Below the pieces are notes generated by a model that saw only the letters and a list, made by a program, of their open reading frames with translations, had not been told where the DNA came from and ran no database searches. Shown here in pieces: positions 7,375 through 22,022 of a stretch of DNA of 64,000 nucleotides. Position 1 is the stretch's first letter. Each line of letters begins with the position of its first letter. The translations under genes were made by a program, and so were the position numbers. This stretch comes from Mustelus asterias. Lineage: Eukaryota. Location: the NCBI RefSeq assembly GCF_964213995.1, contig NW_027590479.1, positions 186,001-250,000 of the forward strand. The letters are read 5' to 3'.

Positions 7375-10300
7375 AATAATGTGTTGTTTCTGCATTATGT
7401 GGGAGCTGGTGGACCCCACTGTGGTTCCCAGTGAGCATGTCTGCAGTAAGTGTTGGTTGCTTGAGGTACTCCGGCTCAGGGTTGATGAGCTGGAGTCTGA
7501 GCTTCAGACACTGCGACATATCAGGGAGGGGAAGAGTTACCTGGACGCTGTGTTTCAAGAGGCAGTCACACCCCTTAGACTAACTAATTCAGCCGGGGGT
7601 CAGGGACAAGAGGGTGTGGCTGCGAGCAAGGCAGGAAGTGGGATCCAGAAGGTAGAGTTGCAAGAGCCTCAGTCCCTGAATCTGTGCAACAAGTTTGAGA
7701 TTCTTGCTCCCAGTGTGGACGGGAACGGGGGCTGCAAGGAGGATGAGCAAACTGCCCACGGCACCGTGGTACAAGGAGCCGTTCAGGTGGAGGAAGAAAA
7801 AAGAAATGTAGTGGTAATTGGGGATAGTGTAGTTCGGGGCATTGACACTGTTCTTTGTGACCAAGATTGAGAATACCAAAGGTTGTGTTGCCTGCCTGGT
7901 GCTCGGGTCCAGGATATCTCATCTGAGCTGCAGAGGAACTTGGATTGGGAGAGTAAGAATCCAGTTGTAGTGGTCCACGTAGGTGCCAACGACATAGGCA
8001 GAACAGGAACAAAGGTTCTGCAGAGGGAGTATGAAAAGCTAGGAGCCAAATTAAAAAGCAGAACCAACAAGGTGGTAATCTCTGGATTACTACCTGAGCC
8101 ACAAGCAAATTGGCGTAGGGTCAATAAGATTAAGGAGGTAAATGTGTGGCTCAAAGATTGGTGTGGGAGGAATGGGTTTGAATTCATGGGACATTGGCAC
8201 CAGTATTGGGGAAGATGGGACCTGTTCAGATGGGATGGTCTTCGTCTGAATCATGCTGGGACCAGAGTCCTGGCGAATCGTATAACCAGGGCTGTAAATA
8301 GGGCTTTAAACTGAATAGTGAGGTGGGGAGGGGGGGGGTGTGAGGGAGGGAGGGTTCAGGGGTATGGGGAATTACAAAATCAAAGGTAAAGGAGAGGGTA
8401 CGAGTGAGGGTTAATGATGAGGACATTCACCGAGTTAAAGGAGTCAAGGGCTCAGGCAGAGTGAAAAAGGTGACAAACACAAGAAGGGAGGTGGTTAACG
8501 CACTGCAAGGAGATGGTCTGGGGAAGGATAACCAGTTTGCGACAGGTAGGGACAGAGCGTGCAATCAAAAGAATGCACTAACAAATCAGGTCCATATAAA
8601 GGCCAGCATAAAGACACTTTATCTGAATGCACGTAGCATTTGAAACAAAGTGAATGTGTTGATGGCACAAATCAGTACAAATGGGTATGATCTAGTGGCC
8701 ATTACAGAAACGTGGTTGCAGGGTGACCAGGACTGGGAACTGAATATCCAGGGGTATCAGACATTTCAGAAGGATAGACAGGAAGGAAAAGGAGGTGGGA
8801 TAGCTCTGTTAATTAAAGATAACATCAGGGCGGTAGTGAGAGACGATATAGGCTCTCAGGAGCAGAATGTGGAATCGTTGTGGGTGGAGATAAGGAATAG
8901 TAAGGGGAGTAAGTCACCGGTGGGTGTGGTCTATAGGCCCCCAAATAATAACTTTGAGGTGGGTCGGGCTACAAAAAAGCAAATAATGGATGCGTGCAAA
9001 AACGGAACAGCAATAATCATGGGGGATTTTAACCTGCATATTGATTGGTTGACTCAAGTCGGACACGGTGGACTTGAGGAAGAGTTCTTAGAATGCTGTC
9101 GGGATAGTTTCCTCGGACAGTATGTTACAGAACCTACGAGGGAGCAAGCTACCTTGGATCTGGTCCTGTGTAATGAGACAGGTAAAATTAATGATCTTCT
9201 TGTGAGGAATCCTCTTGGAATGAGTGATCACAATATGGTTGAATTTCTAATACAAATGGAGGGAGAGAAAATAGGGTCCCAAACCAGTGTCCTCTGCTTG
9301 AACAGAGGGGAGTACAATAGGATGAGGGCAGAATTGGCTAATGTAGACTGGGAGCGCAGACTAGTTGGTCGGACAGCTGAGCAACAGTGGCGGATATTTA
9401 AGGAGATTTTTCTCAGTAGTCAGCAAAAATATATTCCTGTGATAAAGGGGAAATATGAAGACATAAGGCAGCAAATTAGAGGAGTAAATTGGAAGGAGGG
9501 ATTCTCGGGGAAATCTACTGAAGAGAGGTGGCAGTTTTTCAAGGAATGTCTGTCTAGGGTTCTACAGGACAATGTTCCGAGCAGACAGGGAGGAGTTGGT
9601 AGGTTAAAGGAACCATGGTGCACGAAAGCTGTGCGGGACCAAGTCGAGAAGAAAGGAAGCGTACAAAAGGCTCAGAGAGCTTGGCGAAGATAGGGATTTA
9701 GAAGAGTATACGGCTTGTAGGAAGGGACTAAAGAAGGAAGTTTGGAGAGCCAGTAGGGGTCACGAGAAAGCCTTGGCAAGTAGAATTAAGGAAAACCCTA
9801 AGGCGTTCTATAAATATGTGAAGAGTAAAAGGATGAGACGTGAAGGAATAGGGCCTATAAAAGGTGAAGGCGGGAAAATCAGTACGGAACCAGTAGAAAT
9901 GGCAGAGGTGCTTAATGAGTATTTTGCCTCGGTTTTCACAGAGGAGAAGGACATGGATGGATGTACTGTGGGCTTGCGGTGGACTGAAAAGATTGAGTAT
10001 GTGGACTTTAATAAAGAGGTTGTGCTGGAATCTTTGAATGGCATCAAGATAGATCAGTCGCCGGGTCCGCATGAGATGTACCCCAGGTTACTGTGGGAGG
10101 TGAGGGAAGAGATTGCAGAGCCTCTGGCAATGATCTTTGCGTCGTCGATGGAGACGGGAGAGGTGCCGGAGGATTGGAGGATTGCGGATGTGGTTCCTAT
10201 TTTCAAGAAGGGGAATAGGGATAGCCCAGGAAATTACCAACCGGTGAGTCTAACCTCAGTGGTTGGTAAGCTGATGGAGAAGATCCTGAGGGACAAGATT

Positions 10301-12335
10301 TATGAGCATTTAGAGAGGTTTAGTATGCTCAAGAATACTCAGCATGGCTTTGTCACAGGCAGATCGTGCCTTACGAGCCTGGTGGAGTTCTTCGAAAATG
10401 TGACTAAACACATTGACGAAGGGAAAGCGGTAGATGTGGTTTATATGGATTTTAGCAAGGCGTTTGATAAGGTCCCCCATGCAAGGCTTCTCGAAAAAGT
10501 GAGAGGGCATGGGATCCAAGGGGCTGCTGCCCTGTGGATCCAGAACTGGCTTGCCCAAAGGAGGCAAGATGAAGGTATAGATGGGTCTTTTTCTAAATGG
10601 AGGTTGGTCACCAGTGGTGTGCCCCAGGGATCTGTTCTCGGACCCTTGCTGTTTGTCATTTTCATAAATGACCTGGATGAGGAATTGGAGGGATGGGTTG
10701 GTAAGTTTGCCGACGACACGAAGGTTGGTGGGGTTGTGGATAGTCTGGAGGGATGTCAGAAGTTACAGAGGGACATAGATAGGATGCAAGTCTGGGCGGA
10801 GAAGTGGCAGATGGACTTCAACCCAGATAAATGCGTAGTGGTCCATTTTGGCAGGTCAAATGGGATGAAGGAGTACAATATAAAGGGAAAGACTCTTAGT
10901 ACTGTAGAGGATCAGAAGGACCTTGGGGTCCGGGTCCATAGGGCTCTAAAATCGGCCCCACAAGTAGAGGAGGTGGTTAAGAAGGCGTATGGTGTGCTGA
11001 CCTTTATCAATCGAGGGATTGAGTTTCGGAGTCCGGGGATAATGATGCAGCCATATAAGACCCTCGTCAGACCCCACTTGGAGTACTGTGCTCAGTTCTG
11101 GTCGCCTCATTACAGGAAGGATGTGGAAAAGATTGAAAGGGTGCAGAGGCGATTTACAGGGATGTTGCCTGGATTGAGTGGCATGCCTTATGAGGATAGG
11201 CTGAGGGAGCTCGGTCTTTTCTCCTTGGAGAGACGTAGGATGAGGGGAGACCTAATAGAGGTATATAAGATGTTGAGGGGCATAGATCGGGTGGACTCTC
11301 AGAGGCTTTTTCCCAGGGTGGAAATGGCTGCTACGAGAGGACACAGGTTTAAGGTGCTGGGGTGTAGGTGCAGGGGAGATGTTCGGGGGAAGTTTATCAC
11401 ATGGAGGGTGGTGGGCGAATGGAATTGGCTGCCGTCAGTGGTGGTGGAGGCAAAGTCAGTAGGGTCTTTTAAGAGACTCCTGGATGAGTACATGGGACTT
11501 AATAGGATGGAGGGTTATAGGTAGGCCTAAAAGGTCGGGATATGTTCGGCACAACTTGTGGGGCCGAAGGGCCTGTTTTGTGCTGCAGTTTTCTATGTTT
11601 CTATGTTAAAGAAGGAATGTAAGAAAAGGGATAACCAGCCGTGGATAACTAAGGAAATAAAGGAGAGTATTAAATTAAAAACCGATGCGTACAGAGTGGC
11701 CAAAACTAGTGGGGGATTAGAAGGTTGGGAAAGCTTTAAAAAACAACAAAGAACGACTAAGAAAGCGAGAAAGAAAGGAAAGATAGATTATGAAACTAAA
11801 CTAGCACAAAATATAAAAACTGATAGCAAAAGTTTTTACAAATGTATAAAAAGGAAAAGAGTAGCTAAAGTAAATGTTGGACCCTTAGAAGACGAGAAGG
11901 AGGATTTAATAATGGGAAACGAGGAAATGGCCAAGGCCTTAAACAAGTTTTTTGTGTCGGTCTTCACGGTAGAGGACACAAATAGCTTACCGAAAATTGA
12001 CGGTTGTGGGACTATAGGGGGTGAGGTCCTTAAAACGATTACTATTACTAAAGAGGTAGTGCTTGGTTGGCTAATGGGACTAAAGGTAGACAAGTCCCCG
12101 GGCCCGGATGGAATGCATCCCAGGGTCCTGATAGAAATGGCAGAAGTAATAGCAGATGCGTTGGTTGTAATTTATCAAAATTCACTGGACTCTGGGGATG
12201 TGCCAGCTGATTGGAAAACAGCTAATGTGACGCCACTGTTTAAAAAAGGAGGTAGACAAAAGGCGGGTAACTACAGCCCGGTTAGCTTAACATCCGTAGT
12301 TGGGAAAATGCTGGAATCTATCATTAAACATTTCT
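7375..12335 (+). mobile_element. CR1 LINE (host copy): ORF1 about 7375-8314 (Cys-rich/leucine zipper plus SGNH esterase); ORF2 about 8600-9447 and 11612-12335; 3'-truncated and disabled
   Basis: ORF1 motifs VCSKC..LRLRVDELE, VVIGDSVVRG, HVGAND, DGL.LN. ORF2 APE endonuclease motifs LNARSI, ITETW, GDFN, LDLVL, SDH. In-frame stops at 7868 and 8641. Confidence 0.92.
9448..11606 (+). mobile_element. Nested 5'-truncated CR1 LINE with RT domain and 3' tail
   Basis: ORF 9773-11524 contains DFSKAFD, GVPQGSVLGP, FADD. Tail TTCTATGTTTCTATGT. TAAAG duplicated at 9443-9447 and 11607-11611; removing the insert restores host ..YIPVIKKECKKRDNQPW. Confidence 0.92.
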
Positions 12336-12649
12336 AAAACAAAAAGGTAAAAGTTATGGTCAATTGAGCCAGGATTGTATTCTGGGACCTTCCTGTCCAG
12401 AAGTCCAGAAGTAACATCAGCTGAGATTGTAACTTAGCAGCAGAAACCCATCTTCTGTTCTATTCCCCCAATTCCCACAAAATAGTTTTTAGATTTGGGT
12501 GAGTTTGTATAAAATTGACAGCGGTGGAGATTCAAGACACTTAACAAGTGAATAAAGGCAAAAGATTCCACAGATTCTGCACAAACAAAATAAACTTTAC
12601 TATACACAATGATAAAGGGAAAACAAGTTACAATATGTGGAAGGTAAAA

Positions 12650-19627: not shown

Positions 19628-22022
19628 TCACTCGTGAACACGCTGGTGTTTCAGCAAGTGAGGTGACTGAGTGAATCCCTTCCCACACACGGAGCAGGTG
19701 AATGGCCTGTCCCCAGTGTGAATTCGCTGGTGCTTTACCAGGTTGGATGATTGACTGAATCTCTTACCACAATCAGAGCAGGTGAATGGTCTCTCCCCGG
19801 TGTGAACTCGCTGGTGTCTCTGCAGGGTGGATGAATCAATAAATCCCTTCCCACAACTGGAGCAAGTGAATGGCCTCTCCCCAGTGTGAACTCGCTGGTG
19901 TTTCAACAAGATGAATGACTGACTGAAGCCCTTCCCACACTCAGAGCAGGTGAACGGCTTCTCTCCGGTGTGACCTCGCTGGTGTTTTAGGAGGTTGAAT
20001 GACTGGGTAAATCCCTTTCCACATTCGGAGCAGATAAATGGCCTCTCCCCATTATGAATTCTCTGGTGTTTCAGCAGGTCGGATGAATCAGTGAATCCCT
20101 TTCCACACTCAGAGCAGGTGAACGGGCTCTCTCCAGTGTGAACTCGCTGGTGTTTCAGCAGGATAGAAGAGGTAGGGAATCCCTTCCCACAATCAGAGCA
20201 TCTGAATGGTCTCTCTCTAGTGTGAACTCTCTGGTGTGTCAGCAGGATTGATGAGGTAGCGAATCCCTTCCCACACTCATGACAGTTGAATGGCCTCTCC
20301 CCAGTGTGAACCCACCAGTGTTTCAGCAGATGCGATGAACAAATGAATCCCATCCCACACTTGGAGCAGGTGAACGGTCTCTCCCCAGTGTGAACTCGCC
20401 GGTGTGTCAGCAAGATGGATGAGGTAGTGAATCCCTTCCCACACTCAGAGCAGGTGAATGGTCTCAAGAACAAAGAACAATACAGCACAGGAACAGGCCC
20501 TTCGGCCCTCCAAGCCCGCGCCGCTCCCCGGTCCAGGATTGAATCCTGAATCCAGGATCCCCGCCCAATTTTCCAGCCTATCTACATACCAATATCCTGT
20601 CCACCGAGCTGTCCCTCACAGCTACGATGCTTTGTTCATCACAACCTATTAACTCACCCCCACCCCCCCATTCCAGACCATGTGATCTCCAGGGAGAGGC
20701 GAAAACCCAGAGTGAAAACCCCAGGGCCAATATGGGGAAAAAGAATCTGGGAAATTCCTCTCCGACCCCCTGAAGCGATCGAAACGAGTCCAGGAGATCA
20801 CAATGGCCCTGATCGGAAAATGCTTCCCAACCCTAGTCATTTCCACTTCCACAAACACCATATGAATTCCCTGCCCCCGAGACAGGTTCCCAACTATCCG
20901 CAGTCTCGCTCTGTACTGGCACCAGCAAGATGATCATAGAATGAAGCCTTGAAACGAGAAACAAGGAACAATTAGCCCGCGCCGCTCCCTGGTCCAAACT
21001 AGACCACTCTTTTGTATCCCTCCATTCCCACTCCGTTCATATAGCTGTCTAGATAAGTCTTAAATGTTCCCAGTGTGTCCGCCTTCACCACCTTGCCCGG
21101 CAACACATTCCAGGCCCCCACGACCCTCTGTGTGAAATATGTCCTTCTGATATCTGTGTTAAACCTCCCCCCCTTCACCTTGAACCTATGACCCCTCGTG
21201 AACGTCACCACCGACCCGGGGAAAAGCTTCCCACCGTTCACCCTATCTATGCCTTTCATAATTTTATACACCTCTATTAAGTCTCCCCTCATCCTCCGTC
21301 TTTCCAAGGAGAACAACCCCAGTTTCCCCAATCTCTCCTCATAACCAAGCCCCTCCATACCAGGCAACATCCTGGTAAACCTCCTCTGTACTCTCTCCAA
21401 AGCCTCCACGTCCTTCTGGTAGTGTGGCGACCAGAACTGGACGCAGTATTCCAAATGCGGCCGAACCAACGTTCTATACATCTGCAACATCAGACCCCAA
21501 CTCTTATACTCTATGCCCCCTCCTATAAAGGCAAGCATGCCATATGCCTTCTTCACCACCTTCTCCACCTGTGACGTCACCTTCAAAGATCTGTGGACTT
21601 GCACACCCAGGTCCCTCTGCGACTCTACACCCTTTATGGTTCTTCCATTTATCGTGTAGCTCCTCCCTACATTATTCCCACCAAAATGCATCACTTCTCA
21701 TTTATCAGGATTGAACTCCATCTGCCATTTCCTTGCCCAAATTTCCAGCCTATCTATATCCTTCTGTAGCCTCTGACAATGTTCCTCACTATCTGCAAGT
21801 CCTGCCAGTTTTGTGTCGTCTCTCTCCAGTGTGATTGTGTCGATGAGTTTTCAGTTCAGATGGGAATCTGAATCTCTTCCCACAGTCTCCACATTTCCAT
21901 TGTTTCTCCCTGTTGTGACTGCATTTATGTTTCAACAGGCCAGATGATCGGCTGAATGTTCGTCCACACACAGAACACGTGTACAGTTTCTCTCCACTGT
22001 TAACCGTGCTTTCCCCTTCCAT
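19628..22022 (-). pseudogene. 12-finger C2H2 ZNF gene split by a CR1 insertion
   Basis: 5' part 22022-21818 and 3' part 20465-19628 rejoin in frame (HTGERPF) when 20466-21817 and one GTCTC copy are removed. Confidence 0.9.
20466..21817 (-). mobile_element. Young 5'-truncated CR1 with an unusually long 3' UTR
   Basis: Open ORF2 C-terminus ending at 20999; tail TTGTTCTTTGTTCTT; GTCTC target duplication at 20461-20465 and 21818-21822. Confidence 0.92.

Follow-up and report, generated by a model that had tools for sequence, protein, structure and literature searches.

A conserved structured RNA core was found in the 3' untranslated region (UTR) of a young CR1 retrotransposon of the shark Mustelus asterias, within the window, i.e. 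the whole 64,000-nucleotide stretch of DNA analysed. The core belongs to a cassette carried as a constant component by a young CR1 subfamily of about 10,000 copies, and sequence comparison indicates that it is under selective conservation. By analogy with known RNA elements the core may act in the CR1 RNA as a poly(A) clamp of the ENE type, a proposal to which we give an even chance. The features are collected in the table.

Features of the CR1 copy and its cassette (positions in the window)
Feature	Position	Strand	Remarks
Young CR1 LINE copy, 5'-truncated	20466..21820	-	within C2H2 zinc-finger exon, same strand
CR1 ORF2, C-terminal part from RT DD motif	20999..21820	-	
23-mer, 5' copy	20974..20996	-	single copy of empty sister elements is this version
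53-nt spacer	20921..20973	-	without match in clustered unit
Segment common to cassette and clustered non-CR1 unit	20810..20920	-	67-69% identity
Conserved structured core	20676..20809	-	P1 and extension closing a three-way junction, side hairpin, P2-P3-P4 arm
Side hairpin, 4-bp base with U.G pair	20764..20780	-	paired in 8/8 aligned sequences
Lower U-rich internal loop, P2/P3	20700..20756 (20752-56 opposite 20700-05)	-	G-C pairs flank; in all lineages seen
Upper U-rich internal loop, P3/P4	20712..20745 (20738-45 opposite 20712-18)	-	sharks only
G-rich tract, with leftover downstream UTR of the older CR1 lineage	20590..20675	-	
CR1 ORF2 piece, middle replaced by short palindrome	20534..20587	-	
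23-mer, 3' copy, one mismatch	20513..20535	-	
CR1 terminal stem-loop and short tandem-repeat tail	20466..20512	-	common to filled and empty subfamilies

The host copy carries an in-frame stop at 21698-21700 in its ORF2, which ends at 20999-21001, and the CR1 tail ends at 20466. As a previous sequence-only reading had pointed out, the 3' UTR is long, about 533 nt here, the CR1 that ends near 11606 having about 82 nt. The target duplication is ambiguous and at most about 5 bp. The frame of the zinc-finger exon (19628-22010, minus strand) is stopped about 10 codons into the sense-oriented CR1. The same insertion with shared flanks recurs at two further places (L004, L005), so a duplication of the zinc-finger segment probably followed the CR1 insertion. 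The second CR1 of the window (9608-12337, plus strand) contains an RT domain (Pfam RVT_1), is about 70% identical and has a short UTR; it is followed by further ORF2-like sequence, which fits the nesting claimed earlier.

The direct repeats said to bound the cassette are real (22/23 identical), and the reported resemblance to ORF2 holds, since 20534-20587 aligns to ORF2 at about 21706-21759; this piece is likely to be a template-switch scar. A pattern spanning the lower loop matched 4,880 + 4,912 places in the genome, its reversed control only 3, and the motif in the 3' piece gave 10,878. In all 60 sampled young copies (the best 30 search matches and the first 30 pattern matches) the same CR1 tail continues, with 94-100% identity. 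The earlier idea of a mobile passenger thus survives as a one-time capture and fails for an independently mobile unit, as 60/60 young copies share the CR1 tail. An independent insert with a 23-bp target duplication was rejected, no unrelated sites with ends of their own being found and other hosts lacking the 23-mers.

A junction pattern accepting both forms gave 22,485 matches, and among the first 100 listed, counted by eye, 23 were filled and 77 empty, i.e. empty sisters outnumber filled copies by about 3:1 in that sample; the cassette module therefore appears to be dispensable for amplification. Nine empty loci match the window with 91-95% identity over the ORF2 end, each having one 23-mer. 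A tree built from 37 ORF2 ends groups the filled copies as one clade (100/99) within short-UTR families, and this nesting marks the cassette as a late gain. It is likely that the cassette was gained once, late, by template switching, of which the duplicated 23-mer and the ORF2 scrap would be the scars. The filled copies seem to represent the most recent wave, with the qualification that the tree included only 16 of 40 filled rows, taken from the top in BLAST order, which biases its short filled branches. Thirty unselected young copies differ by 0.6-1.4% from their majority, and divergence among copies is 0.85% in the core and 0.75-1.37% in the flanks. The module is also present in contigs of several related organisms and of guessed-RNA runs, these contigs being strandless and blind to expression; in the contigs of three related organisms the five listed core differences all fall outside the helices. 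A recurrent chimera (L038, L056, L263, L264) was observed, in which the complete 3' end of an older sister CR1 is followed by the young element from 21177 on, and which has apparently been amplified as one unit.

Looser patterns recovered decayed older copies of the core, the controls giving 0 matches. The consensus of 45 such fossils, whose anchor columns were fixed by the search patterns, reads from a different CR1 ORF2 end into the same core, a hairpin and a terminal stem-loop of its own. Single old copies mostly lack the full predicted fold, as expected from decay, and were used only via the consensus; for one (L089), an ORF2 directly upstream is supported by tblastn (32%). A DNA search with the sequence upstream of one better-preserved old copy led to a clustered non-CR1 unit with 19 full-length matches, 91-100% alike to the query (L266-L285 and L286-L289, on contigs C17, C22, C665, C833, C2031, C72 and others of assembly G000). 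Because these units were found through upstream DNA, their intact U loops were not built in by a pattern. The stretch 20920-20617 is common to the cassette and the clustered unit, with 75-79% identity over 20617-20675. A G7-U-G5 tract directly follows the core (20657-20669, minus strand), and the old consensus and the cluster unit are likewise G-rich there.

The clustered units are tandem repeats of 1.6-2 kb with a CCCAAT-type minisatellite, and the core, an AATAAA and a GU-rich tract lie in their end segment. In 18 of 19 units AATAAA is found 161-163 nt downstream of the core, with a GU/U-rich tract after the hexamer; the invariance of AATAAA is unremarkable, as 136 of 160 neighbouring columns are also invariant. 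No tRNA, Rfam or significant Pfam match was obtained for the unit, which is possibly a multi-copy non-coding gene and either the donor of the core or its co-descendant. One cluster unit adjoins long open frames (L286:156-4162) that we take to be those of a Gypsy-type LTR retrotransposon.

The comparison with three cluster copies argues for selection on the core, which is identical at 120-121 of 133 positions (90-91%), against 74-77/111 in the upstream and 42-45/55-57 in the downstream homologous flank (67-79%; Fisher p 4e-6 to 8e-5, core vs flanks). Between the young family and the cluster unit the flanks are about 32% and the core about 10% diverged. The core-vs-flank test is blind to which lineage felt the selection. 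Within the cluster, variable columns number 10/133 in the core and 83/527 in the flank (p 0.017), and the core CpGs are retained in 18-19 of 19 copies. The stems are no more conserved than the loops (p 0.13-0.37).

The nested helices proposed in the sequence-only reading are exact reverse complements, namely P1 (20681-90/20793-802), P2 (20693-99/20757-63), P3 (20706-11/20746-51) and P4 (20719-23/20733-37). With its extension P1 pairs 20793-20808 with 20676-20690. The junctions described as A-rich are so on the plus strand and U-rich on the element's own RNA; as the CR1 lies on the minus strand, they are two U-rich internal loops of that RNA. The expectation of a stable fold was borne out, 20670-20820 giving z -3.16 on the plus and -3.39 on the minus strand with 0/200 shuffles as good on each. 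The side hairpin is absent from the opposite-strand centroids, and the loss there of this hairpin with its U.G pair favours the CR1-sense strand, so that the minus strand is most likely the functional one. Folded on the minus strand within the whole UTR, the family majority adopts the structure with probability 0.93-1.0, and 20 of 30 sampled copies reach at least 0.8; the copy in the window has only 0.17 (at most 0.17 when folded in other spans). The low value is probably due to two private changes of this copy, at 20774 and 20743.

A metagenome scan gave four GC-rich, vertebrate-like non-shark loci with the core (L091-L094). They form one family, about 77-95% alike, and are presumably from birds, judged by the tail type of a separate CR1 in L091; the motif lies outside the UTR of that CR1. 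A short open frame precedes the motif in these contigs, within a multi-copy GC-rich unit, and three of the loci contain further degenerate tandem copies of the motif, up to three repeats with a period of about 175 nt and increasing decay. The upstream ORF of the non-shark loci gave no significant Pfam match, and it and the clustered shark unit show no mutual similarity.

In the search pattern for these loci the U-tracts were fixed, as was the purine or pyrimidine character of the P2 positions; P1 and P3 were unconstrained. Three of the seven P2 pairs carry changes in both partners, every cell remaining paired; the two P2 G-C pairs beside the loop are invariant in 8/8, and P3 opens with C-G pairs. 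The non-shark P1 differs in sequence, yet its pairing energy is -25 to -30 kcal/mol where shuffles average -13 to -15 (0-3 of 1000 shuffles as good), and P3 reaches 6-9 bp in three of the four loci (about 1% of shuffles reach 5). The three-way topology was seen in all four and is the minimum free energy structure in the three that were shuffle-tested (z -2.9 to -4.7). The upper U loop is absent from these homologs, which leaves the lower loop as the conserved one. The compensatory changes expected among homologs were found, but they rest essentially on one deep contrast, since the four loci are one family. Together with the higher conservation of the core than of its homologous flanks, these sequence comparisons support the earlier suggestion of a functional structured RNA. 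Elsewhere, two patterns gave 0 matches in the GTDB genomes and the non-shark P2 variant 0 matches in the shark's own genome; 78 loose-pattern matches in a viral collection behaved as chance, with a P2 run of at most 5 bp, and served as a control. A possibly similar arrangement of purine stem, U-tract and pyrimidine stem was noted in the first 400 letters of the teleost CR1 consensus AldAff_CR1-1 (PMC13343379 Supplementary Table 2, row 9).

An ENE is a stem-loop with a U-rich internal loop beside G-C pairs and occurs in single- and double-domain forms (PMC7583470). In anatomy and position the core agrees with this definition (PMC7583470, PMC13541005). There are two U-rich loops in sharks and one in the non-shark homologs, G-C pairs adjoin the loop, where an ENE has its A-minor stem, and some 210 nt separate the core from the CR1 3' end, this being the genomic end and not a mapped RNA end. 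The U-tracts are intact in 30/30 young and 19/19 cluster copies. The upper loop of the young family sets U7-11 against U4-5; the lower loop opens with a conserved AA and has only 3-4 opposing U's.

A difficulty for the clamp is its partner, which would have to be supplied by the host. The CR1 has neither AATAAA nor ATTAAA and its A-runs do not exceed 4, so that a tail would have to come from a host site after read-through. In only 8 of 30 copies is the nearest downstream poly(A) signal no more than 250 nt away, and in 7 of 30 there is none within about 1.2 kb. Within the CR1 group, a poly(A) tail is seen in genomic copies of Zenon only (PMC13343379). The excess of empty sisters and the few opposing U's of the lower loop also weigh against a clamp. 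The following course of events is proposed. A short-tailed CR1 would have captured the core, an old conserved RNA fold, once, through template switching between copies of its own 23-mer; its RNA, polyadenylated at a downstream host signal after read-through, would offer the host-added poly(A) tail to the U-rich loops, which may bind it as a triple helix. This triple helix would slow the decay of the intronless CR1 RNA, and retrotransposition could benefit from the clamp.

The closest likeness is to the dENE of plant and fungal transposons such as the rice hAT TWIFB1 (PMC7583470, PMC13541005), which also has two U-rich loops with a short duplex between them and G-C flanks, close to the 3' end of a transposon RNA that lacks introns. 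The shark core differs in its vertebrate non-LTR host without an encoded poly(A) tail or signal, and in its three-way junction with a conserved side hairpin; a three-way junction is not mentioned as part of an ENE in the available part of PMC7583470. In the Arabidopsis retrotransposon Evade (Copia93) an ENE in the 3' UTR raises RNA stability and insertion number (PMC12501189); like the core it has four U tracts in a fold-back and sits in an unusually long 3' UTR of an active retroelement. Evade, however, is an LTR element whose ENE was tested in vitro and in planta, whereas the core belongs to a CR1 LINE. With the KSHV PAN ENE and the MALAT1/MEN-beta triple helices the core has in common an internal loop rich in U and flanking G-C stems, and the non-shark homologs are single-loop as these are. 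The shark CR1 has no encoded A-rich tract, unlike MALAT1, a processing element resembling a tRNA was not noticed, and the conserved loop has 3-4 opposing U's against the five triples of PAN.

It is also conceivable, though rather unlikely in our judgement, that the fold is a protein-binding scaffold for host or CR1 proteins, serving localisation, translation or RNP assembly, and forms no poly(A) triplex. This would account for the conservation of the junction and side hairpin sequence besides the U loops, for loops as conserved as stems and for the lack of an encoded poly(A) partner, and structured 3' UTRs do bind the ORF2 protein in stringent LINEs (PMC4176376). The 3' stem-loops of that class (UnaL2, ZfL2, CR1 tails; PMC4176376) resemble the core as structured RNA in a LINE 3' UTR. 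The stem-loop of this type, the one recognised by ORF2 protein, is however a separate element here (20466-20512), also present in empty sisters, and the core, which is dispensable for amplification, lies about 160 nt upstream of it. Against a scaffold it also counts that the core is conserved in units without the young CR1 tail and that opposed U tracts with G-C flanks are the ENE signature (PMC7583470).

It is improbable, but would agree with several of the counts given above, that the fold was functional in the older CR1 lineage or the host unit and merely hitch-hikes in the young family. The excess of empty over filled sisters among the first 100 matches listed, the co-amplification of the CR1-plus-CR1 chimeras without evident benefit, a core only slightly less diverged than its flanks among young copies and the silence of the core-vs-flank test on the lineage under selection would all fit such a passenger. 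The contrast of flanks and core in divergence from the cluster unit, the absence of helix positions from the five listed differences in related organisms and the apparent youth of the filled wave, subject to the biased choice of tree rows, speak against it.

The reading of the core as an undescribed self-cleaving ribozyme, possibly pseudoknotted, is very improbable. Retrotransposon ribozymes (HDV-like, hammerhead, twister) define the 5' ends of their elements, and like the core they are compact multi-helix RNAs inside non-LTR elements. The multi-helix fold with its three-way junction and conserved junction sequence would suit a ribozyme, as would a CUGA...GAAA-like run on the plus strand; this hammerhead-like run lacks the G8-A9 and stem I of the hammerhead consensus, and in three other organisms its CUGA is altered at 20773. 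The proposed comparison with Rfam ribozymes matched no family model: there was no gathering-level match in the window or in four cluster stretches, and E-value scans gave only chance-level hits, with E 1.8 for the best one near the core, and nothing significant for the distant homologs. The core thus shows no catalytic consensus and, as described next, no fixed copy boundary.

Self-cleavage, which had been proposed, finds no support, given this lack of an Rfam match and short copies without a common 5' end. Among the first 100 copies picked by the 3' piece, 23 were without the core pattern when the lists were compared by eye; 17 of these are truncated at 20581-20752, a spread of 172 nt with at most 4 within 20641-20645, and six are longer or interrupted. 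The scatter of the 17 ends gives no sign of an end defined by cleavage; a weak group (4/17) was noted about 15 nt downstream of the G7-U-G5 tract. Moreover, stringent LINE proteins recognise the RNA tail (PMC4176376), so that cleavage in the core would separate ORF2 from it. The supposed pseudoknot, a 6-nt loop/tail complementarity (20724-29/20804-09), is exact in the window and present in 27 of 30 young copies, which would favour a ribozyme; its 5' strand has a competing partner, however, that extends P1. In 19/19 cluster copies a change makes the P1 extension fully Watson-Crick while breaking the pseudoknot by an A.C mismatch, which leaves the pseudoknot without support.

Returning to the poly(A) clamp, it is tempting to speculate, as a tentative possibility, that a vertebrate module of this kind predates the split of sharks and land vertebrates and circulates among retroelements and host repeats, being lost and recaptured by CR1, kept by hosts in multi-copy intronless units and shielding the read-through tail; it would be the first ENE in vertebrate non-LTR elements, and its three-way junction would be a new architecture. 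The ENEs catalogued come from viruses, MALAT1/MEN-beta, transposons of plants, fungi and slime moulds, and stickleback retroviruses, LINEs not being among the sources (available part of PMC7583470). No description of the core motif in CR1 was found in the literature covered, ENE reviews and the first 400 letters of each CR1 consensus (PMC13343379) included. CR1-group elements account for 22-34% of the genome in sharks and rays, and the available part of PMC13343379 gives no account of how their RNA survives without an encoded tail. The near-identical filled and empty sister families offer a natural comparison, with and without the module, of RNA stability and LINE success, and the roughly 10,000 copies scattered through the genome could lend stability to host transcripts ending close to them.

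Also observed was an old copy of the core (L177:770-1190) that has an exon some 230 nt downstream of it, both being on the same strand. This exon we take to encode the C-terminus of an acidic ribosomal P protein.
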